In this document: positions 4,444-63,525 of the stretch, one piece after another
Layout: each line of letters begins with the position of its first letter
How positions within the stretch are numbered: position 1 is the stretch's first letter
Assembly: GCF_963676685.1 (NCBI RefSeq)
Contig: NC_092355.1
Span: 63,922,001-63,986,000, forward strand
Source: Mytilus edulis
Lineage: Eukaryota
Direction of reading: 5' to 3'
DNA length: 64,000 nucleotides
Notes under the pieces: model-generated
Database searches by the model: none
What the model was told of the DNA's origin: nothing
The model's input: the letters and a program-made list of their open reading frames with translations, nothing else
Translations under genes and position numbers: made by a program

Positions 4444-4787
4444 ATATCGACACGTCAAAAAGTTTTTTTTCTAATTTTTAAATAGCGTTTCATTATGTTA
4501 TGGATTAGTTTGACAGGCCACCTTTTAATCTTTTCTGGCTAACTCTGTTCAAATTCTCTGGCATTTTCCTATTAACACGAATTTTCGTAATTTAAATCGT
4601 CATCATAGAACGATAAATTAATATTAGGACCATGTCAGAACATATCATTTTTTTTGTATGAGGATGAGAAACCTTGGTAAAAAGTAAAATCACAAAAATA
4701 CTGAACTCCGAGGAAATTCAAAACGGAAAGTCCCTAATCAAATGGCAAAATCGAAAAAAAAACCCACACCAAACGAATGGAAAACAA

Positions 4788-5783
4788 AAGAAGGATGAAA
4801 GATACCAAAGGGACAGTCAGACTCATAAATCTTAAATAAACTGACAACGCAATGGCTAAAAACGAAAAAGACAAACAGACAAACAATAGTACACATGACA
4901 CAACATGGAAAACTAAAGAATAAACAACACAAACCCCACCAAAAACTAGGGTTGATCTCAGGTGCTCCGGAAGGGTAAGTAGATCCTGCTCCACATGTGG
5001 CACCCGTCGTGTTGCTTATGTGATAACAAATCCGGTAAATAGTCAAATACGGTAGGTCACATTCATGAAAGGGAAGGGGATTGTAGTAACGACGTAAGAA
5101 ACACATCCGATATCATTTGTGAAACGGTTATTCCATAACAGTCAACCAACTCGTGATGGCGTCCGTAAAATTTACGAAGGGATGCCATTTGGAACTCTTG
5201 GTTTAATAGCTTACTTGTGAGAAGCAACCCTCTATCAAGAAAATCATGAAATGAAATGCAATCACGGGAATATCGTATCAATTGGGAGATATATACCCCG
5301 TATGAAGGTGCTGCTGGAATGTTGCCACTTAGAAATGGAAAGTTCACAATAGGAAAGCTGAAATCATCTCTTTTATCGTAAAGTTTTGTTTTCAACCGAC
5401 CCTCATTGTCAATTTCTAGATGTAAGTCAAGATATGAAGCAGATTTAACTGTATCTGTAGTATCCTTTATCTCTAGTTCGATGGGATAGATGCATTCCAC
5501 ATAGTCACCAAATTTTGAATTATTTAGTGAAAGAACATCATCTTAATAGCAGAAAGTAGAGTTAAAGGATATTGCTAACTTCTTGTCTTTCTTCCTAAGA
5601 AGTTCGTGAATGAAGTAGGCCTCATATTAATAAAGAAACAAGTCGGCAAGTAGAAGGGCACAGTTTGTTCCCATTGGAATACCGACAGTCTGTTGAAAAA
5701 TACGTCCTCCGAACGTAACAAATATGTTGTCAATCAAGAAATCAAGCATCTTGATAATATCAGTTTCAGAGAATTTTTGTTTG
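4788..5783 (-). mobile_element. 5'-truncated Penelope-like retroelement (RT/thumb pseudogene plus 3' region)
   Basis: Minus-strand translation across stops: FLIDNIFVTFGGRIFQQTVGIPMGTNCALLLADLFLY*YE...FCY*DDVLSLNN...YLDLHLEI...LYDKRDDFSFPIVNFPFLSGNIP..YGVYISQLIRYSR. The YxDD motif carries a stop. Inserted into a dispersed repeat whose halves lie at 4681-4787 and 5784-5850. Confidence 0.85.
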
Positions 5784-7425
5784 ACAACTGTCATATTCCT
5801 GACTTGGTACATGCATATTCAAATGTAGAAAATGGTGGATTGAACCTGGTGGAAGGGCGAGGTAACCGATGAATAATAACAGCAACTGAAAGGGGTGCAT
5901 CATAATAGTTATGAAAACAATAAAGCTATTTTTTACCCCTTAACATACCTCCAGTTGTGAAAAAAGTGTCGTGCCTGAAATCGACAGTACACAAAATATC
6001 AATTTGTGACTGTTTTTGGCAGATAAAAAACATCAGAAAGTATACTACCTGAAGTATAAACATTTTCACCCCAGGCATAGCAACACTACACTAATATGAT
6101 AGCTATTTTTTTTACTGTATGTTGTGAATTTTATGTTTATAGTAAAACAACAAAAAATACCAAACCTTCAAGGAAAATCCATATCTGAAAGTACTATACC
6201 TTAACAAATGCAAAATCAAAGTCAAATATATCACACAAATACAAAATGTAGAAAACTACTGTCATTTTTTTGACTTGGTACAGGCAATGTTTTAGATAGA
6301 AAGTGGTGGATTATATAGTGGTGTTTTTATATCTATCTGAACCTATCCAGGCCAGAGCGAAAAACAAAACTTCAATATAAAGGTGCTTAAACAATATATG
6401 TAGTCCTGTAAAAAAAAAGAAAAAAAAAAAGAAAAAAATAGGCGAAAAACAATCAAACATCTGCCATTATTTTCCGATTTTCAGTATAATGAAATACATA
6501 AAGATATGCCATACTATAATAGGTTTGGATTAGGCTAGCAAAATCAATTTTGAATTTCAGTGCTTCCCTTTTATATTACTTTTATGCAAGTGTCATCTTA
6601 TCTTGACACTCACGTCACTATATACATGATATAATACTCCAAATTATCTACATAGTCACAATGATCATCTAACGAGTTACATAATATCTTGATCATGAGT
6701 TGTTTTTTGATGTTTGTCTTTGAAATAGGAATAACGAAATTTTGTATAATTGCTTTTCAGACAACTATACACCAGGGATCACAGGTGTTTTTTTTTCGAA
6801 GGGTTAAAATTTTGGCGGTTAATGTGATTACCTTTAATGTGCTTGTTATTCCTTTTATGTATCATAACACCTTTGTTATCATACGTTTGTTGTGACAAAG
6901 GCATACTTGATGAATAGTTTTCTTGAATATTTTTTCAAGTCAGGGTTGTGACAGTTGTTGTCCATTCGTGTGATGTGTTTTATCATTTGATCTTGCCATT
7001 TAACAAATGATTTGATTAGGGACTTCTGTTTTGAATTTTCCTCAGAGTTCAGCGTCCGTGTACATTTACGCCAAACATTTTTCATTTTAAAATGAAAAAT
7101 AAATTTTCAAATTGCTCTGAAAATTTTAAATGTAGTTGGTTAGAAAAATGTAACAAAAATCTATTCAAATCACTTTCGAAAAACCAATTTCTCTATAAGA
7201 TTTGAAATTTGTTATTCTCATGAAATTACATTTTTGATTTTACGAAGATATTAAAACAAATAACAATGAGTTTGTGTTAAAAATGATTTTATTTTGTCAA
7301 AAGTTTTCATATATTCAAACATTTGCATTTGCTTGCTTTAGCTAACAAAACATATTTCAATCTCATTCTTAAAAGCAAATTTTGAAAATAATGACCTTTA
7401 GTATTTTACAATTTAGTTTACAATA

Positions 7426-7600
7426 TTGAAAAATGAAAAATGCTCTAGCGTGGAGCATTTTTCAATTTGACTTACAATATTGAAAAATGAAAAATGCTCT
7501 GGCGTGGAGCATTTTTCAATTTGACTTCAAATATTGAAAAATGAAAAATGCTCCAACGCGGAGCATTTTTCAATTTGACGTTTGAAAATGAAAAATGAAA
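7426..7600. repeat. Three 54-bp subterminal tandem units, each with the palindrome AAAAATGCTC..N..GAGCATTTTT (mirror copies at about 15110-15285)
   Basis: TGCTC starts at 7441, 7495 and 7549 (period 54); an inverted set lies inside the right TIR. Confidence 0.85.
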
Positions 7601-8146
7601 AATGATTCAATTTCTCATTTTTCATTTTACTGTGCAATATTCAAATTTGAAAAATGTTCATTATTTAAATGTTTAATAATGAGAACGAAATGTAATTTGT
7701 TTCAATATAGGCGTTTCGAATGTTTCAATTGTTGACACTTTTTATTAAATGTTTTACTATTTCCGTTCTCTTCTTTCTTGTTTTAAGTCAATATATCTTA
7801 AACTTAAAGATCTTTTTAAGGTGTGTATCACTGTGTGTGTGTGTGAACTATGTGTGGTATCAACAAATTCCAAACAAGAATGGTACACTGACAAGTACGA
7901 TAATGACCACACAAAAAAATCATTCTTTCTTTTATATTTATATACCTAGTCGTCTTTGTAGATACATTTTCATATATATCTTTCGATCTAGCAATCTGTC
8001 ATTCATTGTATATATTTATCTGTCTATCTATCTGAATTTTGTTTTTCTTTGTCTTTTTTTGTTTGAATTGTCGGGGTCGAAATCTTTAATTCAGTTCTCT
8101 CGAAGTGAAAAAGTCTCTTACTCACATACATGTACATGTTGTAAGA

Positions 8147-13330: not shown

Positions 13331-16300
13331 ATCTTTTAATGTTCCTTGTTGTCGTTTGTTGATGTGATTCATTAGTGTTTCTCGTTCTGTATATATATTA
13401 GACCGTTGTTTTTCCCGTTTGAATAGTTTTACACTAGTCATTTTGGGGACACTTTATAGCTTGTTGTTTGGTGTGAACCAAGACTCTGTGTTGAAAACCG
13501 TACTTTGACCTATAATGGTTTTTATTTTAAAAATTGTGACTTAGAAGGCGAGCTGTGTCATTGGCACTCATACCACATCCTCTTATATCTAGAGAAACGT
13601 AAACAAGCTTCACATTTGAAGTTCATTTTTAACTGAAATGCCACATTACGTTCATTCCAAATAATAGAGAAATCTGTCTCAAAATGAACAAAGTGATCAG
13701 CAATATCAGTCTCAAACCTATTTTGACTATACATTTACCAAATAAACCATACAATAAAAATAAAAGACCACAGGATCAATTAAACACTTAAATTTTCAAA
13801 ACTTGTCTCCTAGAGACAGTCGTATCTAATTCCACCAAGCACTGACTCAAATGTCTGCTTCTGTTTTTCCAAAATAATGTATTTCAGTTAAAAACAGAAA
13901 AATTTCTGTAAAATTCAACATCAACCTCGCGGGACCAAAATTTAGCATGGGTTATTCTGATTGAGATGCGGAGATGTGGACCACAGCTTGTTCTAGTTGT
14001 AAACAGAGACGATGGATGCCAAATGTTAAAGCAATTGGTATCTAAATAGCTAAGTAAATACCAACCAAAAAAAAACATAACAAAATATAAAATTAATTTT
14101 TATCTAGTTAAGAAATGGAGCATTCAATGACTTCCAAAATAAGCAGTATTTAGAAGGAATATGGCATATTCATCAACCTTATACAGGGAGACTGGGAAAA
14201 GAACAGCTTTCCTAGGTGTTGTTTTTATATTTACACCTTTTCTAGGTTGTCAACGAGGGTATCACCAAACCCGTAGCCAGTGCATGAAAGTACGAAATTT
14301 TATGTTAATAAAATTAAGATTTATGTTAATAAAATTTCCTGTTACAATATCTTTTATTTACTTTTCATTCAGGAATAACTCTCTCGGCTTCGGTTACACT
14401 ATTCTGTCGTTGAGTGCTTTATAGTGAATATTGTAATTGCTTTCAGCTATGCATAATCCTTTGTAAGGCCACAACTAATACGTGTTATGAAGAACGGGCA
14501 TGATTATGCTTTGATCAATATAGAAGCATGTTGCTCGGATCTTATATAATTAATGTACATTAACTGTTTAAAGAAGTTTACAAATGTTTTGCAACGATGC
14601 AAATACTAATCTTGGGAGTAAAAATAAATATCTCTATCAATGAATTCAACATACCAATATCTATTTCATTTAACAAATATGTAGAAAATACTTAGTTAAC
14701 CTGAATGTAAATAACAAAATAAGGAAATATAAAATTCATGGTTTTTAACAAGGAAAATAACAATTGCATAATAATCCTGCGCCACATCACAAAATTTTGC
14801 TGGTGCGTTGTTGTTCTCCTATCTTTTCGGGGTTAGGTAATAAATGTCAATTTACGGGTTCACACATACACACATGTGTATTATATTTAAAGCATAAAAA
14901 CAAAATTTCTAAAGTGTAAACAATGAATGAAAAAATGATTTGATTATCTATTTTCCAATATCTTTTATATCAATTTCTTAATCCTTTTTAGAGCATTTTT
15001 CATTTTGTCACACGATTACTAAAATTGAAAAATGCTACACACAAAAACATTTTCATTTTTGAGAAAATTTTCTAAAAATGAAAATTCAACCCATATGGGG
15101 CATTTTCCATTTTTCAATATTTCAAGGCAAATTGAAAAATGCTCCACGTTGGAGCATTTTTCATTTTTCAAATTTGAAAGACAAATTGAAAAATGCTCCA
15201 CGATGGAGCATTTTTCATTTTTCAATTTTTAAGTTAAATTGAAAAATGCTCCACGTTAGAGCATTTTTCATTTTTCAATTTTTTAAAGCAAATTAAAAAA
15301 TGCTTAAGTTAGCAATTTCAATATTGTGATTTTAAGAAGGAGATTGAAATTTGTTTTTTTTTCTAAAACTATCAAATTCAAATGTTTTAATTTATTCAAA
15401 ATGTTGATCAGATGAAGTTTTTTTTTAACGCAAACTTATCATTACTGTTTATATTATCCTCTTGGAATCAAATAATGTAATCTCATGAAAATAACAAATT
15501 TCAAATTTCATAACGAAAGTGAATTTTAAGAAGTGACTTTATCAAATTTTTGTTACATTTATCAAACAAATTAACTTTAAAATTTGTAGAGTATTTTGCA
15601 AAATTTATATTTCAGTTTAAAATGAAAAATGTTTGGCGTAAATATACACGGTCTGTTCAGTATGCGCTTTTTTGTGATTTTACTTTTTTCAATTTCTAAG
15701 TCGATTAAAAACATTTAAAAACTGATATGACTCTACGTATACTAATTTGATTTGTTATAAACAAGTGCATGAAGTTATCTATATTTTGCTGTCAGAATGT
15801 CAAAAAGCATAACAAATCAGTTATCAGACCAATTGAACTATGCACAACAAGTACATTATACCACTCAATCCCATTTTGATGTACCTGTATCCTAAAACTA
15901 TCATAGGCGTTACGAATTCAATTGCTAAAATATACAACAACCTAAAAATTTATAAATAAATGTAATTTAAGGGTAATCACATTTCAAAATGAATTATGTG
16001 TGTACCTTTATTTTTTATGCGATACTAGTATTTGCTCATTTTCATTTAAAGTCGTATGTCGCATAATTAACGACATTGACAATTCATCTCTCTTGCATGA
16101 TGCTCGACATCAACATATTTGAAAATCAAAAACCTTGTAAACATTGAGGAGCTAATCAAACAACACTGGAGCGTAAAGCCAAAACATAACAAGGAATCAG
16201 AGTTTTCATCAAGTTAGAAAATTAGAACCTCAATGAACAAACCAAGTCTGAAGGATATTACATGATAAACATGTATGTGACTCATTAAACATTCAAGAAG

Positions 16301-19427: not shown

Positions 19428-20274
19428 ATACTATTGTTCGTCTGTCGTTCTTGTTCATTTTTAATCATAGCGTTATCAGTTTATTTTCGACTTATAAGTT
19501 TGATTTTTCCTTCGGTATCTGTTGCCCCTCTTTTATCATTTTAGTCGCTATCATGGCAAATAAATCAAATAAAAAGTATACAAGTGTTTTAATATGATAC
19601 TGAAAGACATAAAGGTAACAGTAGTATACCACTGTTCGAAAGTCATAAATAGATTGAGAGAGAACAAATCAAGGTTACAAACAAAAACCGGGGGAAACAC
19701 ATCAACTATAAGAGAAGAACTATAAGATGAAAACAACGGAACAGAAGTGCAACAAAAACAAAAACCAACATACATTGAAATGTCAGTAAGATATTAAGGA
19801 TAACCAGATTTAAAATGTTACAAAAAGATGATTGTAACCTATTTAATTGTTTAAAATCTTATATAATAAGTAAATGTAGAGCATGATGCCAAAGCTCAAC
19901 AAGAAAGGTCTTTAATTGTATAAATTAAGGCAACAGTAGTATACCGCTGTTCAAAATTCATAAATCGATAGAGAAAATACAAATCCGGGTAACAAACTAA
20001 AACTGAGGGAAACGTATCAAATATAAGAGAACTACGACACAACAAAACCAGAACACCAAAATGTAAGCGTGCTCCAAGCTCATGGATATAATTTTAGTGG
20101 AAACCTTTATTTGAATTGTATTGATTGGCCGTTGCTTACTTAACGTCCTGTTGGAATTATCTTAAAATATATAGAACAATCGATAAAAAGATATGTGTTG
20201 CAAAGTTGGTCAACAGACATATAGGGCAGAAATCTAGTCATCCAGTTGTATTGAGTAGATGCGAGAAATTTATT

Positions 20275-22890: not shown

Positions 22891-23033
22891 CAGCTTTTAG
22901 TTCCTCAATGCTTTTCAACTTTGTACTTGTTTGGTTTTATAACAATTTTGATCTGAGCGTCACTGGTGAGTCTAATGTAGACGACATGCGCGTCTGGCGT
23001 AATAAATTATAATCCTGGTACTTTTAATAACTA
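22891..23033 (+). repeat. Retrozyme-like repeat fragment with degenerate hammerhead (22957-23000)
   Basis: GCGTCA-CTGGTGA-GTCTAATGTAGAC-GACATGCGCGTC-TGGCGT: same scaffold as the intact copy, with core substitutions. Confidence 0.7.
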
Positions 23034-23719
23034 TTTTAGAACATGATATTTTGAATTTGTGAGTGTCCTTTTAAATCTACATAAATGTGAACTCAAAATT
23101 CTGGGGACGACTATGCACATAAATAACAAAGCAACTGTGAGCTGAAAATTAATATATACATGTAGCAACAATTGGCCAATATCCGTTGAAAACATTGTCA
23201 GGTTTTATAATGCTAAAATAGGCTACACTTGACTAGTAAATTAAGAGACATTTAGTTTACTCCTTGTCATGAGAACTTTTTAACTTAATCACCCCTTAAA
23301 AAAGTCGTTTGTCTAAAGGATTTTTCTTGATTTAATTTCACAATAAACCCTTACATCTGAACTTTTAAAACAAGGATTGCACAATAAGGTAGTCATTTTA
23401 CGACCTATACACAGGGCACTTTTATGTTGTGCTAGAAATATGATGCGACCTACATCTCTTTCTTAGTTTTTTTACAACAAATCCTGCACGTGAACAATAC
23501 TTTAGGAAGGACTATATATGCAGGTACTGCTAAAACACGTTTTGCGGTTATAGATAAACCTGGGAATAAGTCATATCACATGGAAGTTTCCGGATAAACA
23601 TATAATTCACGTTGTGAATATATATTATTTTGCTAAGAATTACTAAGGATATTTCAAGGGGAACTAAAGTGAGACGAATTGTAAAAAGAATTTTGAATAT
23701 CTAAAGATTGATTAAAGGC

Positions 23720-24712: not shown

Positions 24713-25079
24713 AATAAACTCATCATAGACACCAGGACCACATTTTGATAAATACGCCAGACGCGCGTTTCGTCTTCAAAAGACTCATCAGTGACGCTCG
24801 AATCTAAAAAAATTAAAAAAGAACAAATAAAGTACAAAGTTGAAGAGCATTGAGATCCAAAATTCCTAAAAGTGTTGCCAAATACAGCTAAGGTACATTG
24901 TAATCTATGCCTGAGGTAGAAAAGCCTTATTATTTCAAAAAAATAAAAATTTTGTATACAGTTAATTTATAAATAAAACAATATCAATGATAATTCATGT
25001 CAGCACAAAAAGTTCTGACTACTGAGCTTTTGATACCCACGGGGAAATAAATCTCCATCAGCAGTGGCATCGACCCAGT
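24713..25079 (-). mobile_element. Non-LTR retrozyme-like monomer (~370 bp) carrying a hammerhead ribozyme
   Basis: Homologous to 22891-23033, 26621-26740, 53457-53595 and short pieces at about 28060 and 52720; non-coding; contains an intact type I HHR. Confidence 0.72.
24754..24797 (-). ncRNA. Minimal type I hammerhead ribozyme, intact core
   Basis: Minus strand reads GCGUCA CUGAUGA GUCU-UUUGA-AGAC GAAA C-GCGC-G UC / UGGCGU: 6-bp stem I, complete CUGAUGA and GAAA boxes, short stem III with a palindromic GCGC loop, and GUC cleavage between 24760 and 24759. Confidence 0.85.
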
Positions 25080-25263: not shown

Positions 25264-25330
25264 AATCGAGTATTGGAGTACACTCGGTAGAATCGAGTAT
25301 TGGAGTACACTCGGTAGAACCGAGTATCGA
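25264..25330. repeat. 27-bp tandem repeat (about 2.5 copies)
   Basis: AATCGAGTATTGGAGTACACTCGGTAG twice plus a partial copy. Confidence 0.8.
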
Positions 25331-25390
25331 ATACCAAAAACGATACTGGACACTTTCTTGTTAGAATATTGCTTTCTTCTTTATGTAACA

Positions 25391-26166
25391 CTAGAACACA
25401 CCCGTGATATCGCGGGTCCGTGACTGAATTAAAGTATATAACTATATGCGCAAGCCTTATTTTAATATTAGTATTGTCATCTGATAAAGTCATGCCGATT
25501 ATAAGATACACAGTTTTCTCTGCTTTCAAATCTTTCTGTTTGAACCCGTCGAACTGGAACTTATCAATTATTGGTAATATTAATTATTTGGAAAACAAAA
25601 AGTCCTGGAATGGAGTATTTTCTAATCAACAGCATTGTCCTATATTAGTTTTAAATAAAGTTAAATTCTTTGATTCGACAGTTTACGTCATGCCCGTAAA
25701 ACAGCGTCATGCCCGCTAACAAATTGAAAACTGTACCTATACGCCTTATTTTTAGTCCATATTTTTAGTATTCGTATTGTTATCTTAGAAAGTCTTACTG
25801 ATTAAAATACTACAATAGGTAACAATTTGACAATTTAGTAGTGTCAACCCTGTGATAATGACCCGTGTTTATAGCATATTAATCCTGAATACACCGTTTG
25901 GTGGTGCGCCTGTCAGATGCGGAACGTACAGATAAGGTAATAGGTAACATGTGAATATACTATTGGTATCGGTATCGGACTCGACCCGGAACTTCTTAAT
26001 TATTGGCAATATTAATTACGTGGAAAACAAAAGGGCCTGGAATGGTGTAATTCTTAATCTACACTTTAGTACTATATAAGTTATATATATAAAGTCGAAT
26101 TATTTGATCCATCGTTTTTACGTGATGACGGCTGACAAATTGGACCTCGTTTTTTAGTATTAAAGA
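25391..26166 (-). mobile_element. Non-autonomous Helitron (776 bp)
   Basis: On the minus strand: 5' A|TC at 26166; 3' hairpin ACCCGCGATATCACGGGT followed by GTGTTCTAG|T at 25391. Inserted in an AT dinucleotide with no TSD; internal ~155-bp duplication (about 25545-25700 vs 25980-26140). Confidence 0.8.
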
Positions 26167-26620
26167 TTGATCTTCCTGAGAACCTATTTCGGAAAATTAA
26201 AAAAGGAATCAATGATTAATCATACAAGTTAAACACATACAACTTGTTTCAATATACATAACCCTTTTAGGCTAACACTTTACACTACAAATATGTTAGA
26301 CATTGCGACAAATCAGTACCGTCAGATAAACTATGTTCGGTGGCAAGACAATAATTGACAAAGTTGCAAACCCGATTACCCCTAAATGAAATAAATTTTA
26401 TCGACCCTCAGTGCAAAGTTAAACTTCTAATTCTGACGCCTTTGTAAATCTTTAATCTGTTTTCTTAACGATTACCAAATACATGTGTTTGACATATATT
26501 TTCCTTGTTATAATTTTAGAAAAGGTGTTTATCAAATAAATTTGATAAGATTAATATTTTTTACTTAATTAGTACTAAACATTTAGGTTGACATAGTTAG
26601 TAATTATTGTGTATCGTATA

Positions 26621-26708
26621 CTGATGAGTCTTATGCAGACGAAACGCGCGTTTGGCGTACTAAATATGACTGATGAGTCTTATGTAGACGAAACGCTCGT
26701 CTGGCGTA
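26621..26708 (+). ncRNA. Tandem pair of hammerhead cores (49-bp period) lacking the 5' strand of stem I
   Basis: CTGATGA-GTCTTATGCAGAC-GAAACGCGCGTT-TGGCGTA at 26621 and CTGATGA-GTCTTATGTAGAC-GAAACGCTCGTC-TGGCGTA at 26670, followed by the family 3' tail to about 26740. Confidence 0.7.
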
Positions 26709-27126
26709 CTAAATCATAATCCTGGTACCTTTGATAACTATGTCATTCTTTGCCTAATATACTTTTGTTGATAATGTTTCGTTCGTTTAAAAATACACCA
26801 CATAATGTTTAATACGTTTTTTTTGCGTTTCTGTGTTGTAGATATATTCCCTAACGCGAATTCGAATATAGGCCTAACTCGATAGAATCATTCGATTAGT
26901 AATTGTTCACAAAGTTGAATCCCTTATTTATAATAACAATTATGACAATTTAATGTTATCCTGATTTATAGTAATTTCTCGCAATTTGATTGGCTGATAT
27001 TGTCCAAATAAATTTCAGTACAATTTTTTATTAGGTCAATTGGAATTATTTCCCTTGTACCATTGACTTAATAAAAAAAAAAGAAATTTGGAGTTGCTTC
27101 CCTTTTGTTTTTTTTACGTCTGCAAA

Positions 27127-28010: not shown

Positions 28011-31000
28011 AGAAAACTATATCAAATTCACTATAATTATGATCACATCGTCACTACAAATAAACTCATCAAAGATACCAGGACTAAATTTTGTACAAAT
28101 TACTGCAAGACCAGGAACTCTTTCCACGTGACACTTTTCTTTAATATGAAAAATACTAACTGTAATACCTTATTATAATAATATGAGATATGTTTTTCCT
28201 GTTACGGAAGAGTTTGGATCTGGATTACGAATACTGTGTTCATAATGTTGTTGTCGTGTAACTTTTTGGTACACATTCGTACGCCTTAAAACAGCAGTAT
28301 CCGTAAACAGAATAAGGAAAGGGTAATGGACAAGCGCAAATGTGAGAAACACATTTTCAGTTCATTAGAATATTTCCTTTTCTATTGGTATTGTAGACGA
28401 TCACGTGTTGGTATTACTATGGTTACTCGAGCTCAATTTTGTTATTTTCATTTGATTGTTTTTTTGTTAACATTATCATAAATATTTGAAGTTGAGGTTA
28501 TAACATTATTTTGATTATCATCTATTTACTTTCAAGCCGTATGAAAGTACTATGAATTATGTTAACCCTTTCGCAGTTTCAGAGATCATCATGTTTTGTA
28601 GGGTCTGTATTTCAACCCAATTTTATTTGTATGTCTTTTTTAACATTTTAATTTCTGCACTAAAAAACAATACTTATACTTTTCTGAATAAATGAATATG
28701 TTTGATATTCGTCGATGTCAAAAACAAAGTAACGACATAAAAAACAAGAGAAATGGAGAAGCCGATATGTTGTTGTTCCAAAGTAAACAGACGTGTAATT
28801 ATGTCATTATATGAAAAATCCTAATCTCTTAAAGAGGGGATTCGAAGTTACAGACTCTATTAAAGAGCTTGCATCCTGACAGAATTACAATTAAAAAAAA
28901 AACCACGAAGAAGCAAGTATATCTTAATAAGACACAACTAAGGAAACACAAACACTCTCACTGACTACAGAAACACATACACACGTAGATGGTTAATTTT
29001 GTTTTATTAATATAATTCTATTTGCAAATTACACTATATAAGTTAAGCAATAACACAAAATATAAAACAAACCTAACACGAAAGTAAAAAAATAAAAGTT
29101 TAAACATAAAACAATTAAAACATATGCAAGATACATTGTCAAGGACATTGACCTTATGTTCCAAACTCTAAAGATTGCTTTATGAAGTCACCAACTGCTG
29201 ACAACGGTTTAGATTCAAGATTTTAAGTTGTTTTAGACTGTAAAGCGCTTGGACATTTTATTCAGGTTTTATATTATCGGTTTTTTAAAACAAATGCTTC
29301 CTTGAGGTTAAGATCAGTCAACAATCTAGACAAAAATGGAAGTCTTCGTCAAGTTTATTACAATATCAACATAGCTTTTGATTTTTGGGTATATTTCTTT
29401 TCAAATAGACTTAGAAATAAAATGTTGGTGTACGTGTATGGCACATTACTTAGATAAAAACATTTGCAAAGAATGTTGCCGTTAGTTTGTTTACAGTTTA
29501 GATTGCGTGAGTCCAAATGTCTGTTTTTGACAGAACCGTCACCAGGAACGGTCGTTTTATAAGTCTACTTTTAATCTATCATTGACATCAAATAATATGT
29601 TATGGTGAAGTTGTGGGGTACACAGTGCGGAATGAAAAAACAATGTCACTACAATACATAAAATACACTGCTGGGTGGGATTGAATATAAGATACGGGTG
29701 CCTTGTCTTTGTCAAGCTTGCACTTAAAAACAAAAATTGTAGAATTTGTCTTTGTTTCAAATAAAGCAACTTGCATAAGTAGCTGTATATCCTGTCCAGT
29801 ACTTTAGACAAAATGTAACATAACATGTCATTGCATATAGGAAAATAACCATCACATAAGTAGACCAATATAGTGTTCATCCCTTTTCTAGAAACACCAA
29901 ATATAATAATATTGGTGCTTTGAAACACATATTTCGAAGAAAATAAATTTCTAATAGAATATGTCTTTGAAACTCAATCAAATCATAATTCATTTTTGTA
30001 ATACCTCACTGAAATTTTAACAAATGACAGAACACATAGAAGCAAATGTGCATGTGCAGTTTCCCATTATAAGTGTAATACCACCCTTGATTAATCCCTA
30101 TTAGCCTTTGTTAAATTTGCAGTTTAAAAAAACTGTGTTGAATTTATGTTTATTTCAAATACTGGAATACTTGGCATGAGCAAAGTTTTATTCGGTCCAG
30201 TACTATAGAAAAAATTGCACACGACATTTTATTGCATATAAGACAATAGCAATTACTTTAAATTATCCAATCAAACTTTCACCAAACTTTTACCCTGTGT
30301 GCAAGCTGTAGTTATCATGTAGCCGCAAGTTTTCAAAATATTCTATAGAAGCACAAATAAAAAAATGGCGCTTAGAAAAACCAAAGACATATGTTTATGA
30401 CTCACAAAAGTGTATTGCAATGAAATGCAGGATTAATTTCTGACAAATTCAAGGGAATATATATGTTTTCGACCCTTTTACATATGCAACCGAGTGTGAC
30501 GTATTACTATTCCGAAGAATAACACCTACAAATGGTTAAGTGCAAAAGATTACGGTCATGTCTATAATTTTGAAGAAAAAAAAAACCGTGTCAAATTTAG
30601 AAAAAAAGTAAGATCACACAAATACTGAAACTCCGAGGAAAATCTAGTCGGAAAGTCACTACGCACATGGCAAAATCAAATGGCAAAACACTTGACAAAT
30701 GAAAAGGAAGTGAATATCTGCTTCTAATTCCACTAACATTTAGAACAACGAATAAAGTACATTAAACATTTTGCTGCATAAAAAAATATAAGTGATTACT
30801 GACTTATACACAATCCTTTTGAGTTTTAAGTTAAATAATTTGAAATGTTATCGTTCCATATTCTGAACTTACATAGTTAAACTAATTCTAAGAGTTCAAT
30901 TGTCATTGTTGTAGCGCTAAGGGACATTGTTCGAAACAGTAGTGAAATACATATTTTAAGTTGGAGAAAAAAGACTTCAATTATTGTACATTTTTCTACA

Positions 31001-31015
31001 ATGACTGTTGTATCT

Positions 31016-34000
31016 TTATTCACAACAGAAGAATTTAACATCGTTCAGAGCAGTATTGTCTAGTTGTCCTTGGTAAGCTTCAATTTTGGTCTGTAAACCA
31101 CATATGGCACTGTTCACCGCACAAGAGTCGCTCCATTCCCCATAAGTGCCATATCGTCCAATTCCAGGAGGATAGCTAAGGTCAACGACATCAAATTCAT
31201 CTTTGAAATATCGGCATCTGAATCTGAGGTAATTTGCACCAGTACTATCATAACTAGCCTATCAAACAAAAGAGATTTCATACCAGTTAGAATTAATTTA
31301 TTGAAATCGGAGCATCTGTAAATTATTTTCTCCTTAACCGTTGGTCAAAAGGTTGTGTACTGTAATGTTCGCTACCTTCGCGATTGAAAATGAACGCGAA
31401 TATAAATTGACGTTGATATGTAACACTTGGATCTTTCTTGATTAAGCCATTTTCAGTACATTTTCAATCGCCGCGTCATGGTCCAAAACAAAACATGTTA
31501 TCATATCAACCTAAAATGTTCGCGAACATATGTCGATTTACAGAAGTTGACAGTGCCATGACTTTTGATATAGATTTCCAAAACTTTGAAGATTGGAAAC
31601 GATATTAGTGCATTGCATAAGTTTTGGTGTTTCCTTTTTAAGAAGGTACAAGAATTAAGGTTTGGAATCGAAATATATAGAAATTTTAGGATGTTAAAAT
31701 TAAATGAACCTTAATCAAATAGGCAAATGTTTAAGTCTTATTTACGTGGAATCTGAAAACATGTATCTTATATACTATTAATGTGTAAAAAAGTAAACTC
31801 ATACTTAAAAGCAAAACAACAAGAATACAGAAATCATATGAAAATCCAAAACCGGAAGTCTTTCATCACATGGCACATCCAAAACCTCAAACAGATGAAA
31901 CGATTGGAAAACAATTTTTATATTTCCGATTTGCTTTTTGACATGTCTCGGTATGTTGTACAAACAACATTAATATATTTATTTTTGATATTTCTTTAAT
32001 GATTTCGGTTGGATAATCTGTTAAGTCTTACCGTTTGTTGTTCAAATAATTATAAAATTTTACTTCCATAACATCTTTATCAAGAAAATTGTTTGGACGA
32101 GTATTGTGAAAATAATTGTATAACGTTCGATCATGCATGTTAGTTACGTAAGTGCGTCACTGTTTGTGATATCCTTTAGTATCTATCGTTGATGGACTAT
32201 GTTCGATGTTGTTCTGTGCTTTGCATGTTGTGTCGACTATGCTATTATTTGATTAAGCATTTCACTTTGATGATTATTCCTGCGTGTGTTTGTGCTGTAT
32301 TTCCGCCACTAAGAGTTGTCATTTGAGCAATATTTTGAACATTGTCATAACGCGGGAGGTTTGGCTACCCTTTACACCAGGTTTTACCCACCATTGTTGT
32401 CTTGAAATGTCCTGTTGCAAGTCATTTGTCATAAAATAATTCGTGTCCTTGTATGTTACCGTTTGCTTTTTGTTGTACTTCAGTGTTCCTGTCGTTCCCT
32501 TGTTTTCCTTGTATAGTTGATGTGTTTACCTCGGTTTTAGTTTGTTACCCAGATTTTTTTCTCTCGCTCGATTTATGACTTTTGAACTAGTGTTGCCTCT
32601 ATTTGGCATGTTTGGTACAGACATTTCCTTATCGAAAAAGTTCATCTTTGGATACTTTTAAATGTCGGTTGAAAACATTGTATTTCGAAAATTATTTTGA
32701 ACTTTTTTGACTTTTTTCTTGTGTATCACAGTGTATATTTTCAATTTTTGGTATATTACATACATATTGTATTTTTGTATTTTATATGTCATTTATGTAC
32801 AACGCCATACATTATATATTGTATATGTAGAAATAGGCGTTTAATTAAGTTTTCGTGTTTCATGTTTCATCTGTAAGTCCGATACGTTGCAACTTTTAAA
32901 ATAGAACTGCATTAATGTGTTCCCTAAAAAACCAGGTTCAATCCACCATTTTCTACATTTGAAAATGCCTACACCAGGAATATGACAGTTGTTGTTCATG
33001 CGTTTGATGTGTTTAATCATTCTATTTTGCCGTCTGATTAGGGACCTTCTGTTTAAGTTTTCATCGGAGTTCAGTATTTTTGAGGTATTTACATTTTCAT
33101 ACAAATAACTTACATAAACAAAGAGGCAATTCCAAAAACACACTGTTTTAAAAATCGCCTGTATTTATGTTTTGAAATTTAATAATAAATAAATTAGTAA
33201 ACAAAAATAACGGAACAACATAATAACAAAAAAAAAGAATTGCACGTGTGCACATGAGCCAGCCTTGTAAAAAGACCGTCCGGTCAGTTAGACTCAAATG
33301 AAACTATAAAAGAAATGACGATGAGCAAATTTTTGACTACGTAATATAACAATATGCAGCTGTGCTTGCAACTTTCCACCAAAATTCAAATGAATTGGAT
33401 GTAAAATTGTTTAAATTTGTCTGAGTGAAGACGGACACAAAGTACTGATATAAGAACGGCCTTACTATATGGACTTAATGACCACACAAACATAATAATG
33501 TCACACAGTATTGTTCCACTGTCACTATTCCGAAAATCACCCATACAGAAACATCATAAAATATATGTTTATATATACAAGTAAGAAGACAAAAATAAAT
33601 ACATGGAAAACTAATCTGAATGGCTAAACATTGGAAAATTTAAGGACAATGCATATATGTTCTCCAAAATATCTTTTTTTTCTTCAAAATCGATGTCCAT
33701 GCCAACGTTTTGTTGGGGAATATAGATTTTTTAGTGTATTATTCCTAAATAAATACTTTTAATAGCTTTATGCGATAAAATCTGCATCTTAGTTTTAGAT
33801 CTTATTCTGTATGGTCATACTTGTAAGAGTTGTAAGCGATGTAATATTTCTATGAATATCTATATAATTTTAAGATATAACCAGCTTACACTGTATGGAT
33901 GTACTTGTAGAGAATAGGCGGTGAGGAATGTTTTTGGTGGACAAAGTGCTTCCCCTGTCCAGTATCCCCATACCTGCTGACCAGAACTAGCTGTGTCACC

Positions 34001-36590
34001 ACAACGTTCACCCCCTCTATTTCCGCAAATGATTTCTATAGCATTCAGTTCTGACCTATCCTCATGGTATCCTTCGATCTGTCAATGAAATGCACAAATT
34101 ATATGAACAAATACAAACATGCTTTAGACTATATTCTGATTTAACGGATTTTTCTTATATTCAATCATATTTTTGACACCTTGTGATTAAGTATTTTCAA
34201 CAATAGACCTTGTTAGCCTACCAAGTGCCCATTCAAATTGCAAATTTTAAGGTATTTCAAAGAGTAAAACAGATGAGTTATTTAAATGACTAAACACTTG
34301 TATGCAGTGTTTATGTAAGAAATACACGACTAGTAATGCTTTTAATTTAATAGCCCTGCTAAAATTGGTATACGTAAATCGATAATCACTAAAGTACCTT
34401 GCGATACTAAATGCATGCAGCAATCAACACTTGCTTATTGCATGGACGATCATTCATTCTTATCTTTGTCTCATACAATATCCAACCTTAGATGATCTGA
34501 TGTTAATTTGGCTTATATTTTCTGCTTATATAGTTTGATTTATTTCTCTCTTTCATTTGAACGAAAAATATAATAAATATTTGGCTTGATATGAGTATTT
34601 AAACAATCTTTTCTTCCGTTTTAAGAGATTAAACAGTTATAATAGAAATATACACACTTTCATTCTGAAACCAATAGCATAATGACCTATTGTGCAAAAT
34701 TCTGCAGATTTCCAAGCACCAAAAGCTCCACCATTTGTAACAGATAATGTCTGAGTTACTGAAACAACAAACATATAGATAAAGACTACCACACTATAAC
34801 ACTATAGCTGAGTACTATTATCTAGATGGTTAAAAAATTATGTTCTATGTCTTAGTACGTGACAAAGCAATTCATTTTCTTTTATGGCTCATTATCAAAA
34901 GTGCAATTTATGTTTTTATTTATATTTTGTGAGTATTCATTAAAATAGTAATGAGCGAACCGAATTTCTTAACAATTCCGATGTTAGTCGTGCATTGTGG
35001 AAAGTTGTCTCGTTGGCAATTTAACCACATCTTCTTTTTTATATTGTATTTCATATACAATTATTTCGTCTGATTCGGTGACCTGTGTCCGTCCATGAAA
35101 AGATGTACACGTTAACATTTAAACTTCAAGCTAGAAAAGCGTTTAAGTACACTAGGTACACTTTTCACATTAAATTTTTCTCAGGTAATTGTTTCTATTT
35201 TTAATTTTATAATTAGCAAAGAAAGAAAAAAAAAAGGTAAAGCCTTCAATATTAGGTAAAAATCTCATTTCGATGTAATTCAAACCCCCGTGAATATGCA
35301 CGAGAAATTGGTAACATCTAGCTTGTTTGATACTTGTTTAAAACTGAAAAATGGACATACAGCTGAAATCAATACCATTGACGATGCCAAGAACACATTG
35401 AGTTAGTGTCTATTTAAGATAAGTTTTTTTTCAATTACACTGTATTCAGAAAAACGTAAATCAGCGAGCTTTATCTGATTGATTGTGTCACATTTTGTCA
35501 TCTAGTGCCTGTTATAGTTACAAAATTAAAACAACACGTTAAATAATATCATGCTTTTCTGGATTAACCTTTATCAGGAACGCTCAAAGTCAAACATTTA
35601 AAATTAGATGAATGTATAAGTACCAAAACAGTTGAAGAGCTATATGACAAACACACCTAAAGGTAATAGCAAAATGCATCTTAGGTCAACTTGGTAACTA
35701 TGTGGTTAAAGCTTTGCTAATAGATAAAGTCAGTCAGTTGAAGTAGTTATCATCATTGATTTTGAACTGTGGTGATACTGGTTGCTTTTTTTTATTGACA
35801 ATCATATCTTTATTTTTTTATTTACCATATTTTTTTAATTACACCACTACACATAACAGTCCCGTTGACTGATGCATAAAAGATAATGATACACGTGTTT
35901 ACTATCGTTTTGTTTTCTGCTCATGACACGTAATATCGGGTTGTATCAATAATTTGGGAAATACAATTCACAACAATAATATTTTATAGGCAACAACATC
36001 AAAAGTAACTTTATTACAGTTTGTGTAATAGTTTTGTTCTCCTCTTTTAACACAATGTCAAATGGTAACAAGAATCAAAGCATTTTTATGATTAATGAGA
36101 AAGTGTAATGAAAAAATTAACAATGGAAATATTTTGTAATTCTTTGTGCATAGCAGTGGTCATACTAAAATAAAAATAAAATATTCATCAATGAAAAAAA
36201 TTAGAGGATCCTAGAGAGTACGAACATTTTTTCGTTTTACGAAATGACTAATAAGCACAGGTTTGACTTACCGCCATGTGTACTACTGGGATGTATGAGG
36301 TTTGAGCCAAATACAGAGTCAAAACCCGTATGACAGCACCCGGACTGATCGAGTTTACATTTTTGAGTCGAGGTTATATACGTAATCTCACAACATCTGT
36401 CACCTAGTAGTGCACAGAATGCTGTACATTGAGTTTTAGACATTCTGCCTATAGTTGTCAGATCAACTGAAAGAATTTTCTTGTTCTTCTCTACTATGAA
36501 ATCTTCTTTTCTCGAATGAAAAATTCCAACAGCAATATCCGCATTTTGAAAAAAGAAGCCATAGATCAAACCGATAACATATACTTCCAT
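31016..36590 (-). CDS. VMO1: Secreted VMO1-like protein with N-terminal PAN/Apple-like Cys-rich domain, paralog 1 (4 coding exons, 283 aa)
   Basis: Hand-spliced exons 36590-36272, 34758-34658, 34078-33890 and 31258-31016, all GT-AG with phases 1/0/0 and an open frame to TAA. Product: MEVYVIGLIYGFFFQNADIAVG (signal-like)...[23 protein letters not shown].. then [106 protein letters not shown], i.e. the three VMO1 repeats. An AG acceptor 2 nt before the ATG implies an upstream UTR exon. Confidence 0.92.
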
Positions 36591-37934
36591 GTCTGAAACA
36601 ATGAAAAACTCTAAATGAATTAATAAGTTTACAAGTTTACAACCAAATATTTAACATTTTAAGTCATTTGATATCTGCTGTTCTTTTTGCGTCTTTTGTC
36701 CAATTCAATTTGCTTTTAACCACGATACCTGTCATTTCATTAAATATGTATGCAAGCAATTATTTTTATAGTACATTGCTTTCCATGCACTATACAATGC
36801 TATACATGAATGACTTTTTATTGTAGATAAATTATGAAAGTGAGCTCTCCATAACTACACTGATGAGGTTTACAATCCCCAGGGGCATATATTATCTAAT
36901 GAATACAACAATGTAATGGTTTTCTTTTAAAACCCCCGTGTTGTTCCCAATGAGCCAGATCGTATTGACAGACAGATATTGATATGTGCAGATGAGGTTA
37001 GTCTGAAATAAAACATTATAAAAAATGGAGTTGCATGGTTAAAAAACAGTTGATTGGTTGACTTCTGTAATACAAAAACACTTATAGTAATAAAAATATG
37101 TTTGTTGAAATAGTCATGTCAAGAATGTTTGATAATTATAATGAAAAGAAAACCATTGTTATTTTATCTTCTTCCAGACGCGGAAATGGCGTAACAAGTT
37201 GAGAACATATAATATGTTTTAGCAGGGTTATGTTGTTGATAACTACTGCAAACTGTTGATGCCTTTTTGTGAGAGAAGCGCCGTTACAAAATATAAATGT
37301 AGGAATGATCCTTTTGAGCTTGAAACTGGGAGGTATGAACATTTGCCGCTTGAAGAGTGATGTTGTTTTAATTGTTTCAATACTGTTTAAGATGACTATC
37401 ATGTCATTTTACAATGTCCTGTTTATAATGATCTTAGGCAAGTTATTTTTACTGATGAGCATTTTAAAAATTTAACAGAATGTCAGAAAATGTATTTTTT
37501 TTTCGAATTAAGATATTATAAGATTCTTAGTCAAACCTGTAATTTTATTCAACAAAAACGCCTAGAAGTTTTATATTGTCAATATTAATTGAAATTATGT
37601 TGCATTATTTTACCTTCATGTTTTATATTCATCATGTACATACATGATTATCGTCTCTCATTAATCTGTACAGATTGGCTTATTCATACAAAATATATTG
37701 TGTAATTTTAAACATCAGGGGCCGGTTGTTCAACTTGTCGTTAGCACTGACGCTCCGTTAAATTTGGCTAATGTATCGTTAAAATTTAACGTCTCGTTAA
37801 ATTTAACGTCTCGTTAATCATGTTGTTCATCTCATAGTTAGTTTTAACGCTCCGTTATAATGTTTTTAACTTGAGTGAAATTTAACGATGGTAGGTAGCA
37901 GCGTTAAACCATTTAACCAAGGTATAATTAGAAA

Positions 37935-40054: not shown

Positions 40055-40851
40055 AATACATATTGTTAACACTTTAATATGCTTTCTTACTTTTTCATAG
40101 ACACATGATCATAACTAATTGAAGACCAGTTTTAATACACTATGGTCTTAATGGAAACACTGTTTTATTTTGTTGATGTTCAAAATAAGGAGACATGGGG
40201 TGCCTGCCAGTAAAACAACTATTCACCAAAGTACAAAATACTTTGATTTAAGCAACTTCTGGTTACCATATACATGTATATGGCCATACACAACGACGGT
40301 TTATTATCTCCGTGATTCGATATTGAAATGATTTAATAAGATTAAAACTTTATTCGATAAGTGTATAATTTTTATAGTAAAAGATTCAATTATTGCTCAT
40401 GAAGTAAAACAATTCACACTAGTGACACAGGAAGACTTTCGATGCTTTTCATGAATCAGATCAATTACAGTTTCTATTATTTTTTGTCAGAACTATTTGG
40501 TTCCCATTTTACACTTCACATCATTTACAAACGTATTCGATATTAACATGATAGACATTGACATAATCCACATCCACAACCATTACAAACTACTCTAAGA
40601 AAAGAAATTGGCAACCGTTTTCCCTACCAAGTTCAACATGATATAAAAACAGGTGCATGATTCTGTTCTGTGTTGTTCAATAATTTCTGGAAGTTTTATT
40701 GATAACTGTTACATGTAGATCATTGAGGTTAATAGTTAAGACCTCCTTTAATTCAATCAAATATATAATTATGTGAAATATATAATCATTTTTTCTTTTA
40801 AAAATAAAATTATATCAATATAACATGAGAACATAACAAATTAAGTTAATA

Positions 40852-51874: not shown

Positions 51875-54800
51875 TTATTCACAACAGAAAAAAATAACAT
51901 CATTAAGTGCGGTATCATCTCCATATCCTTGGTGAGCTTCAACTTTGGTCTGTAGACCACATATGGCACTGTGCATTGGACAGGCGTCACTCCATTCACC
52001 ATATGAGCCATATGGTCCATACCCAGGAGGATAGTTAAGGTCAACGGCATCAAATTCATCTTTGAAATATCTGCATCTGAATCTGACGTAATTAGCGCCA
52101 GTGCTATCTTCATTAACCTTTCAAAAAAAAGATATGTCATATCTTCAGATTTCATACCAGTTAGCAAATATCTATTAAACTCGGAGAATCTGCAAATTGT
52201 TTACCAACTAACTGTAAACCAACTAATGTTCGCTCCTTTCAAGTTTTGAAAATAAAGGCGATATCAATCGTCTGATCTTTTCTTGTTAAGCTACATTAAG
52301 TACATTTTGATATCGCAAACATAAATGGCCGCGAAATTGAACTCAAAGGACTAAGCGCAAAATAAGGTATTCGTAAAACTCAGTTCGTTTACAGAAGTTG
52401 GCAATAAAACAGACAGAAAGAATAGTAACTGAACAACATAATAATCAAAAGATAGAAATAACACGTGTACATGTACACATGTCAATAAGCCAACTAAGTT
52501 AAATATCGTCAGGTCATTTACGTTTAAATGAAACTTCATATGAAAAAAATAGGTAAATGTATTGCAAACTCTTATACAAAATGAATTATAAACATTATGT
52601 TACAGATGTAAAAGCAATATTGTTATTCTAACGACAATTTCACAAATTAGTTTCATTTATTCATCGTTCAATCTTGCAAACAATAAAAGCAAGAAATTGT
52701 AATTGATAATTTGCAGCATCTGGCGTAAATGCAAAATTTAATCATGGTATCTATGATGAATTATTATTTACAGCTTTCTGAACAAAGAAACATCAATAAT
52801 TTAGACCCCGTTCTCCATTTCAATATTGAAAATCAATAATGGCTACACAAGAACACGTATTTCTATTTCAAATATGATGCATATTATAATTTTTTATAAA
52901 GGTTTTTCGTAAGGTATTTATAAAAAAAACCAAACAATTTCCATGAAATCGTTTTTGTTTTCAAATCGTAAACTAAAACGCATATGATAATGCTATATCC
53001 AGTAAAGTGAAAATATATGCAATTTTATTTAAAGAATTAAATTTTGTTTAAAATAATAATACAACGGACCGCTTATAAACAAGATAGAAACCTGATGTTT
53101 AGTGGTTGCTGTTCATAAATGTTTCTCGCTTCTTGTTTTTGTTTCTTCCTGTTTGAATAGTTTTACATTAGTCATTATACGGCTTTTATAGCTTGCTGTT
53201 CGGTTTGAGCAAAAGCTCCGTGGTGAAGGATTTCCTTTGAACTTTTACAACTTGTGACTTGAATTGTTAGTCTCATTTTACACTCATTTAACATCTTCTT
53301 ATATCTATTTATAAAATGAGATATGAAAGGAAAACTATCATGCAATCAATCTTCTACAACACCCTTCAAATAATCAAATTAAGAAGCATTTAATTATCAG
53401 CTTAATCTGAAAAAAGACAAATGGCGGGAGAAAAGTACCAACATCAGCACCGTGACAATAAACTCATCATATATACCAGGATTGGAATTATGTATTTGAT
53501 CCAGACAGGCGTTTTGTCTAAAAACAACTCATCAGTGACACTCGAACCCAAAGAAGTTAGAAAGGCCAAATAAAGTACGAAGATGAAGAGAATTTATGAC
53601 AATGATTTGTATCCTTCCTTTTCAAACACTTGCAGAAAGTTGTGTTCTATATATTTTCCGTCATCAGACTAGGTTACATTTTTTCAGGACGTCTAAATAA
53701 GAAATTTAGTAGAAATTAGTAATAGTTAAATATATAAGCAGCTTACACTGTATGGATGTACTTGTAGGGAAAAAGCAACAAGAAATGCGTTTGCTGGACA
53801 AAGTGTTTCCCCTGTCCAATCTCCCCATACCTGCTGACCAGAACTTGCCATATCACCACAACGATCACTTGCTCTACTTCCACAGACTATTGCAATAGCA
53901 TTCAGTTCTGTATTGTCTCCATGTGGAGGTTCAATCTGTAAAAAGAATGCACACATAAAACGAAAGATTACTATTCCAACGTGAGCAACGTCGGAATCGT
54001 TATAAATAAAATTTATAAACGACGAAAAGGTTAATACAATTATTATATAATTAGAGTTAATGTTTAAGTGTGACAACTTCCAGAACATTTGTTTCGGTCA
54101 ATAAGACTGTTAAAAGACACAGATACAAAATAATTCCTTAGTTTAGGAAAAAAACACGGTAAGTATTGATTTAACAAGCTATATGTCACTTAACAAATTC
54201 ACGAAATAGAAAAGGGTACCTTGAAAGGGATGTACCAAATGTTTTCTTAGTAGATTGAAAATTCCTCAATGTACCATGAGCTGCTAAATGCATATGCTGT
54301 GAATTCATTTATTGTAGTTGGTATCATTTTTCGTGGATTGCTGAAATCTTGCATATTCGTGGGTATTTAATTTTGTGGTTTTACCAACCTCTGTTTACAA
54401 AGCTTTAAGCCTATTGAAATTATGATATTTGTTGAACATTTGAATTCGTGGTTCATCTGTAACAACGAAACCCACGAAAATTGGTATCCAACAAATAATA
54501 ATGAATCCAAAGTTACCATCAACTTTTGCATGCAAACTGTTTTATTCGTAACATTGTCTCATACAATACTTAACCTAAGATGATTTGATGTTAATTTGGC
54601 TTTCATTTATCGCTTATTTACTAGTAGTTTAAGAAATTTTGTTTCCTTTAGTTTTGACCAAATTAACTGAATTTAGTCTTCAGGTGTAGTTCTCAAATCA
54701 GTATAGTAGTTTTATAATCTTATTCAAAAGTTTTGATAGATCAAGATTAAACGTATTTCATAAAAATATACATACTTTCATCCTGAAACCAATTGCATAA

Positions 54801-63000: not shown

Positions 63001-63089
63001 TAGCTTAATATCTCAAACGTATCACAGTTGACAACGATGCGTGAACAAAAAAACTTATATTTCCTAGTTTATATTTAACACAACGCATG

Positions 63090-63525
63090 GATAGAAAATA
63101 AACTGAACACGCCATGGCTAAAAATAAAAAGATAAACACTAAAAAATAGTAAAGAAGACACAACATAGAAAACCAAAGACTAAGCAAAAAGAACGCCACC
63201 AAAATCTTGGGTTGATCTCAGGTGCTCCGGAAGGGTAAGCAGTTTCTACAACCCATCGTGTTGCTTATGTTTTTACAAATCTGGTAAATAGTCTTATTCG
63301 GAAGGTTACATTCGTGAAAAGGGAAAGGGTATGGTAGTTACGACATAAGGAACATATCCGATATCATCTGCGAAACGGTTACTCCACAACGGTCAACCAA
63401 CTCGTGATGGCGTCCCTAAAATTTACGACGGGATGATTTCAACTTCACCAGTTGGAACTCTTGGTTTAATAGCTTTCTCGTGAGAATCAATCCTCTATCA
63501 AGGAAATCATGCTAGGAAATACAAG
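63090..63525 (-). mobile_element. Penelope-like 3' fragment
   Basis: Colinear with 4830-5270; encodes HDFLDRGLILTRKLLNQEFQLVKLKSS..KF*GRHHELVDRCGVTVSQMISDMF. Confidence 0.8.

Follow-up and report, generated by a model that had tools for sequence, protein, structure and literature searches.

In a 64,000-nt stretch of the Mytilus edulis genome (assembly GCF_963676685.1, contig NC_092355.1, positions 63,922,001 to 63,986,000; hereafter the window), we have found a 5'-truncated, hammerhead-bearing retrozyme copy with a hairpin like that at the start of Naiads, a clade of Penelope-like elements (PLEs). The copy was probably inserted by a Naiad reverse transcriptase (RT). What ties the retrozyme to its probable helper is neither a common hammerhead nor proximity but a hairpin outside the ribozyme, at the insertion end of both. 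To judge from sequence comparison, the Naiad link is likely to be what is new here, while the window copy itself is likely an ordinary member of a known family.

The copy is 367 bp long, with its 5' end at the hairpin start and its 3' end at the fixed end of the family (Table 1). It matches the genome at 87-92% identity over exactly these bounds (query 12-378, corresponding to 25079-24713). Retrozyme units of 365-370 bp often stand head to tail, repeating every 365 bp or so and joined by a 7-nt junction, in arrays of up to 8 or more units. An earlier note on this DNA, made from the letters alone, had proposed a non-coding repeat of ~370 bp with at least five relatives in the window; the genome copies and their tandem spacing bear out the repeat, and five relatives plus pieces of family C were confirmed. 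A 25-nt motif at the 3' end of family A has 4317 exact matches in the genome and a family-B motif has 13431, each against a control of 0. The array units of family A are 90-98% alike. A third related family, C, has a 350-bp unit about 69% identical to the window copy and includes an array of 16 or more units that are 97-100% alike. No ORF is common to the retrozyme family, no LTR, PBS or tRNA head was found, and GC content is under 50%. A non-coding unit of 150-450 bp, a type I hammerhead and tandem repetition, the defining traits of non-LTR retrozymes, were all found.

By its description (size, ribozyme and copy number), the repeat is very probably the published Mytilus non-LTR retrozyme. The M. 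galloprovincialis retrozymes (Cervera and de la Pena 2020, PMC7229834) are alike in their 350-390-bp repeats, type I hammerhead and thousands of copies, and also in their hammerhead families, lack of LTR, PBS and PPT, low GC and expression. The available text of that paper gives no helper and no cis signal, and it has two families as against the three (A, B and C) found here. A 2016 supplement on the mussel retrozyme supplies a label only, 'Rtz 375 nt'.

Table 1. Retrozyme and Naiad features of the window (a dash in the strand column is the minus strand)
Feature	Position	Strand	Remarks
Retrozyme copy, family A	24713..25079	-	One unit minus the 7-nt junction; 90-94% identity to array units
Bulged hairpin, ~60 nt (predicted)	25021..25079	-	Common to the Naiad unit start
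Type I hammerhead ribozyme	24754..24797	-	Stems I-III, core intact; Rfam RF00163, covariation
C17, predicted cut after this base	24760	-	GUC site; predicted cleavage
3'-terminal segment of the copy	24713..24734	-	TGGTAYC motif variant and fixed family end
Family-B relative	22895..23036	+	5'-truncated; degenerate hammerhead; ends at fixed end
Family-B relative	26620..26741	+	Hammerhead segment doubled; ends at fixed end
Family-A 3'-end fragment	28058..28095	-	
Family-A 3'-end fragment	52716..52772	+	
Family-A 3' fragment	53457..53600	-	Degenerate
Naiad, 5'-truncated	4786..5809	-	C-terminal part of RT and 3' UTR; putative helper family
Second Naiad 3' fragment	63082..63525	-	5'-truncated
Further Naiad 3'-UTR pieces	about 1001-1265, 19429-19536, 47686-47777, 49967-50113		

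Several other features of the window were recorded. Just upstream of the retrozyme, 25270-25335 and 25390-25500 hold a short direct repeat and the terminal part of a further high-copy element. A degenerate member of another hammerhead-like repeat family lies at 35556-35578 (minus strand), with copies also at loci L022 and L059; the copies seem to have a common fixed end and are unrelated to families A, B and C by BLAST. A long tandem array that repeats about every 60 bp occupies 58588-62290, and broken frames at 37932-40100 (plus strand) resemble what we take to be a Harbinger-type transposase. Related repeats rich in inverted repeats, with weak chance matches to Rfam, were found at 7056-7660 and 14980-15651, and a segmental duplication with gene-like pieces joins 30969-36725 and 51834-57945 at 70-78% identity. 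Elsewhere in the genome, nested and chimeric insertions were observed (L010, L037/L171, L071, L162 and L182), including a B-to-A chimera, an A copy inserted in B and another in a hammerhead of its own kind, a Naiad within a B array and B within an old Naiad.

Read on the minus strand, the hammerhead consists of stem I (24797-24792 with 24759-24754; 6 bp, including two G-U pairs), the core CUGAUGA (24791-24785), stem II (24784-24780/24776-24772), GAAA (24771-24768) and a stem III of one A-U and one C-G pair, whose GCGC loop lies within an 8-nt palindrome (24768-24761). The type I elements (CUGANGA core, GAAA, NUH and stems I-III) are all present. Stem II reaches 5 bp in the window copy through a private change and has 3-4 bp elsewhere in the repeat family. 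The complete core, 6-bp stem I, short stem III with palindromic GCGC and GUC site described in the earlier note were recovered, as was its predicted cut site, C 24760 on the minus strand. The profile search that it had suggested returned Rfam RF00163 at 32.5 bits (E 3.3e-4), slightly under the gathering score of 34; a loose core pattern by itself performed at chance level (5 matches vs 3.9 expected). All 11 pairs are kept across 7 natural copies. Families A/B and C differ by one double change each in stems I, II and III, all of them on one lineage split and not many separate events, so that the covariation which the note had expected in stems I and II is seen there and in stem III as well.

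The note's description of the ribozyme as minimal does not hold, since a 2-bp helix III with a tetraloop is present: the motif is an ordinary invertebrate type I hammerhead and not the minimal PLE kind, which is described as being without helix III or loop contacts (PMC7761336). In isolation the hammerhead is predicted to favour a misfold (-13.1 vs -5.5 kcal/mol), and the 8-nt palindrome is predicted to permit an intermolecular helix (-14.7). When folded freely, neither the ribozyme region nor the complete unit was significantly stable (z -0.5 and +0.5, respectively). Cleavage as a dimer, as the note had proposed, may thus occur through the palindrome helix, but it is not required, as a cloned mussel retrozyme monomer is reported to self-cleave unaided with a kobs of about 0.1/min (PMC7229834).

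Retrozyme reads were present in all four RNA runs bearing the same species label, at 2324-5300 reads of 85% identity or more, much of this being family B. Reads 99% or more alike to the window copy numbered only 1-8 per run and its flanks were essentially uncovered; the four runs thus gave no sign of transcription of the window copy. In three of the four runs first mates fall more often on the plus strand, by about 1.7-4 to 1 at the peak, and the fourth is even; in most stranded libraries, plus-strand first mates mean RNA of the ribozyme strand. Reads across the family-A unit junction occurred in all four runs (26-53 per run), although circles and array read-through look alike in such data. 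No pile-up of read ends was seen at the cut site in this fragmented RNA-seq, which is uninformative for self-cleavage. Carrying a single ribozyme, the window copy is unable to release a circle, and it lacks the 7-nt junction. Because its hairpin is weakened, nothing follows its 3' end and it has only the one hammerhead, the insertion is probably inert and a dead end.

The insertion signature was read from family-A loci, taken as the first sites on contig C1 with the 3' motif (70 minus one duplicate, giving 69, with the L012 site left out). Fifty-nine of the 69 end within 11 nt of the motif; two of the remaining 10 are one unit longer with the same end site, four continue beyond the aligned stretch and four end elsewhere. 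This set was chosen by the 3' motif, and the exact-motif counts serve as an unselected control: genome-wide, the 4317 matches to that motif compare with 1243 to the hairpin motif, which lies about 30 nt further on in arrays. In family B, 24 of 28 loci do not run on into the hairpin. The fixed 3' ends lie a few bases short of the hairpin, about 45 nt downstream of the cut site. The 59 clean family-A copies have a median length of 222 nt, and 12 are longer than one unit. Fifty-five of them extend across the cut site, which precedes the motif end by 44 nt. Their 5' ends are scattered, with two lying no more than 5 nt from the cut site; an apparent pile-up of 5' ends there arose from truncated BLAST pieces and was ruled out by this count in the set selected by 3' end.

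This is the signature left by target-primed reverse transcription when it has a fixed starting point and its template carries an intact or rejoined cut site. A cut linear monomer is excluded as the principal template. The end of the 3'-terminal segment of the window copy, about 46 nt downstream of its cut site, would be the RT start site. The 30 best-hit loci showed no consistent target-site duplication, only short AT-rich overlaps; none was seen at the window copy, and no poly(A) tail was seen at retrozyme ends. Among the joints listed in four contig sets there was no empty insertion site for the window copy, and two contigs bridge its 3' junction, in runs that may include the source sample.

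The Naiad RT fragment at 4786-5809 was used as a lead to full-length elements. It is 88% identical to the intact element in amino acids and 94% in nucleotides; Pfam gave no match to the 159-aa Naiad fragment of the window. Eight full-length Naiads were recovered, each a 3370-bp unit with a frame of 1000 aa; they are 97-99.8% identical to one another, and the family is young and intact. The frame carries a Zn-finger-like motif at residue 89, a GIY-YIG-like motif at 137, CTC at 431, GPKY at 466, DKA at 558 and YIDD at 844; Pfam matched RVT_1 (E 1e-4) and GIY-YIG (E 0.035), in each case short of the curated cut-off. An N-terminal GIY-YIG before the RT, together with the CxC, GxKY and DKA motifs, agrees with a Naiad identity, the motif order being as in the published account of the clade (PMC8557442). 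By eye, this 1000-aa family differs from the published Naiad_Mgal. No hammerhead core pattern was found on either strand of the Naiad unit and no Rfam match in Naiad copy L164, and the clade is described as having no canonical hammerheads (PMC8557442). The earlier note had the retrozyme mobilised in trans by a Penelope-like RT, citing RT fragments in the window: the shared junction hairpin supports trans mobilisation, but those fragments are Naiad and so belong to a hammerhead-less clade. All 28 Naiad ends stop before the hairpin (from 26 of 30 RT-selected loci, the other 4 being without the exact pattern), and in all eight full-length Naiads the hairpin comes right after the upstream junction.

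Two further groups of elements were observed in this genome. A second Naiad family (L265-L274) is abundant, about 38-43% identical to the first, and has an in-frame TGA where the first has Cys, as in selenoprotein Naiads; no common hairpin was found in it. Canonical PLEs (L229-L232) are young and intact, with a C-terminal GIY-YIG, a Cys linker and frames of 929-980 aa. Many of these are flanked by inverted copies, and in one the ORF is followed by a short hammerhead-like core.

The retrozyme unit junction and the Naiad tandem junction are identical at 57 of 69 nt (E 4e-15), with a local score of 92 compared with 29.7 +/- 3.4 (maximum 49) in 300 shuffles; the retrozyme query, taken from L010, begins with family-B sequence, and the match falls within its family-A part. 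The window copy itself matches the Naiad junction over 61 nt at 79%. Retrozyme and Naiad share a short TGGTAYC-type motif, the fixed end and the ~60-nt bulged hairpin, and so have both a terminal cis sequence and an insertion signature in common. The same fold is predicted for the hairpin in families A, B and C and in the Naiad (z -2.8 to -3.6); that of the window copy, with three substitutions relative to its family, is weaker (z -1.7). In an alignment of 8 hairpin sequences, 98.9% of cells are paired and double changes occur in 3 of 23 pairs, although these sequences represent 4 related lineages and one of the 3 double changes depends on gap placement. Covariation across 4-6 related lineages would thus count as support for the structure and not as proof.

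Comparison with other elements bears on which helper is concerned. A junction score of 90 was reached by the helper Naiad and by two metagenome Naiad pieces, and no similarity (score 20-27) was found in 2 copies of the second Naiad family and 4 copies of canonical PLEs with a C-terminal EN. On this ground the canonical PLEs and the second Naiad family were ruled out as junction carriers, within a screen of about 3 canonical PLE and 2 Naiad families from this genome; the copies compared may lack the real 5' start of the second Naiad family. A hairpin pattern that excludes the usual A/B continuation had 217 matches, the first 30 of which comprised 25 copies of the helper Naiad, 3 of family C and 2 rearranged A/B copies. 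Of nine metagenome records that contain the hairpin motif, five are copies of A, B or C and three are Naiad pieces (one resembling the helper family, two from others); the ninth is a 341-bp repeat whose hammerhead-like motif is a different one. Compared by eye, the published Naiad_Mgal and Naiad_Mcor consensus sequences (PMC8557442) begin with a recognisable variant of the hairpin: it has an additional inner hairpin, and its outer stem shows three further double changes. Related Naiad families have hairpins of a similar kind, so that the helper may also be one of these. The hairpin has no match in Rfam and none as a tRNA by ARAGORN, and HDV-like and twister folds, considered by eye, fitted poorly.

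The likely mechanism is as follows. Arrays with two or more hammerheads would be transcribed and cut to monomers, which a host ligase would close to circles; mussel retrozymes are reported to self-cleave, to be ligated in vitro by RtcB and to accumulate as circles (PMC7229834). The Naiad protein would then bind the hairpin and nick AT-rich DNA, and cDNA would start internally, just 5' of the hairpin. A precedent is the Poseidon PLE protein, which starts reverse transcription internally at +111-118 and needs RNA to +172 (PMC11167929). A cut linear monomer would yield about 45 nt of cDNA before its end was reached, whereas copying of a circle (or an uncleaved multimer) could continue past the cut site and round again, giving truncated and tandem copies. 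The hammerhead would supply the circle, permitting whole and repeated copying of the unit, and the window copy would be a product of hairpin-directed internal priming. The 90-98% likeness of array units in family A does not single out a circular template.

A broader and more tentative reading, which we put at somewhat under an even chance, is that the retrozyme is a three-part parasite made up of a Naiad RT-start module, a spacer and an exchangeable, circle-making hammerhead, the ~90-nt module being enough for any small circular RNA. The RT-start module would consist of the short motif, the start site and the downstream ~60-nt hairpin. With an internal start, only circularised unit-length RNA would be copied whole, and the module could make a small circular RNA a template for rolling, target-primed insertion. 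Such parasites might be born directly from Naiad junctions.

Two loci were observed in this connection. At L176:1290-1856 (G000:C1, about 68128850-68129410; L175-L177), a 201-bp tandem of about three units joins a Naiad 3' end to Naiad positions 1-134; it is 5'-truncated, ends at the Naiad 3' end and has no hammerhead. This mini-element possibly illustrates how such parasites are born. At L243:1165-1592 (minus strand), a 341-bp partial tandem in another record has, immediately ahead of a more Naiad-like version of the hairpin, a hammerhead-like motif that is damaged and of a different kind, which suggests that the ribozyme module is exchangeable.

The nature of the template admits another reading, which we consider rather unlikely though worth weighing: a Naiad helper may have copied an uncleaved, linear, multimeric array transcript, with the hammerhead and circles as by-products or stability aids. 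Spanning of the cut site fits either template. Naiads are described as amplifying without hammerheads (PMC8557442), the 201-bp tandem of the Naiad junction exists without one, and in Poseidon, hammerhead mutants left insertion unaffected and unprocessed RNA was the dominant substrate (PMC11167929). However, the hammerhead has been kept with compensatory changes and a different one stands before the same hairpin at L243, which argues that selection keeps it, and mussel retrozyme RNA is reported to be mostly circular (PMC7229834).

The shared stretch could also reflect descent from a Naiad, or a role in promotion or translation, which is conceivable because the hairpin immediately precedes the Naiad ORF. 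The corresponding alternative, that an inherited Naiad 5' promoter or translation signal is all that is shared and that a canonical hammerhead-bearing PLE or a LINE did the copying, gains from the presence of intact canonical PLEs with 929-980-aa frames and from a literature that, as far as consulted here, favours hammerhead-bearing PLEs as helpers. We regard it as improbable, as a promoter-only role leaves unexplained both the common end point relative to the hairpin and the short motif 5' of that end, canonical PLE copies are without junction similarity, covariation points to RNA structure, and neither a poly(A) tail nor a target-site duplication was seen. Satellite-like spread at the DNA level, by unequal crossover or gene conversion and without reverse transcription, would suit long homogeneous arrays such as that of family C, but it has very little to recommend it for thousands of dispersed copies with one fixed 3' end and random 5' truncation. 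For the dispersed copies it is largely refuted, while growth of the long arrays may still fit.

Known systems offer points of comparison. Published Naiad PLEs (Craig et al. 2021, PMC8557442) are alike in their junction hairpin, 3' motif, fixed 3' end and 5' truncation, and also in partial tandems and the lack of a clear target-site duplication; the available text of that paper does not describe the hairpin. The retrozyme differs in having no ORF and a hammerhead, whereas Naiads are without a canonical one. Poseidon PAc (Frangieh et al. 2024, PMC11167929) is alike in an RT start inside the RNA, AT-rich targets and genomic ends that mark the start. Its RT needs about 55-60 nt of downstream RNA, comparable to the ~60-nt hairpin described here. 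Poseidon PAc belongs to a different PLE clade, its start site was determined biochemically whereas ours is deduced from copy ends, and its 30-40-bp tail class is absent from the 59 clean ends here. Vertebrate retrozymes (Li, Clavereau and Pollet 2026, bioRxiv 10.64898/2026.07.22.740005) are alike in a terminal sequence common with PLEs and in a proposed borrowing of PLE machinery; that case rests on Xenopus pLTR homology and co-occurrence, and in the available text it extends to no mollusc, Naiad partner, cis element or start site. Earlier work has proposed that PLEs help retrozymes, both from shared hammerheads and from the Xenopus pLTR homology (bioRxiv 10.64898/2026.07.22.740005), and a 2020 review, in its available text, describes animal retrozyme repeats as being without a conserved motif that points to a helper (PMC7761336). 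Our search, with most subscription journals and the Repbase reports outside it, found no report of a Naiad-retrozyme link.

The Naiad link reverses the usual argument, in that the partner is a PLE clade without hammerheads, and it gives a reason for circularisation. The hairpin is a first candidate cis signal for Naiads, which are dominant in many invertebrate genomes. A defined helper, RNA signal and start site would make the mobilisation of animal retrozymes directly testable in an existing assay format.
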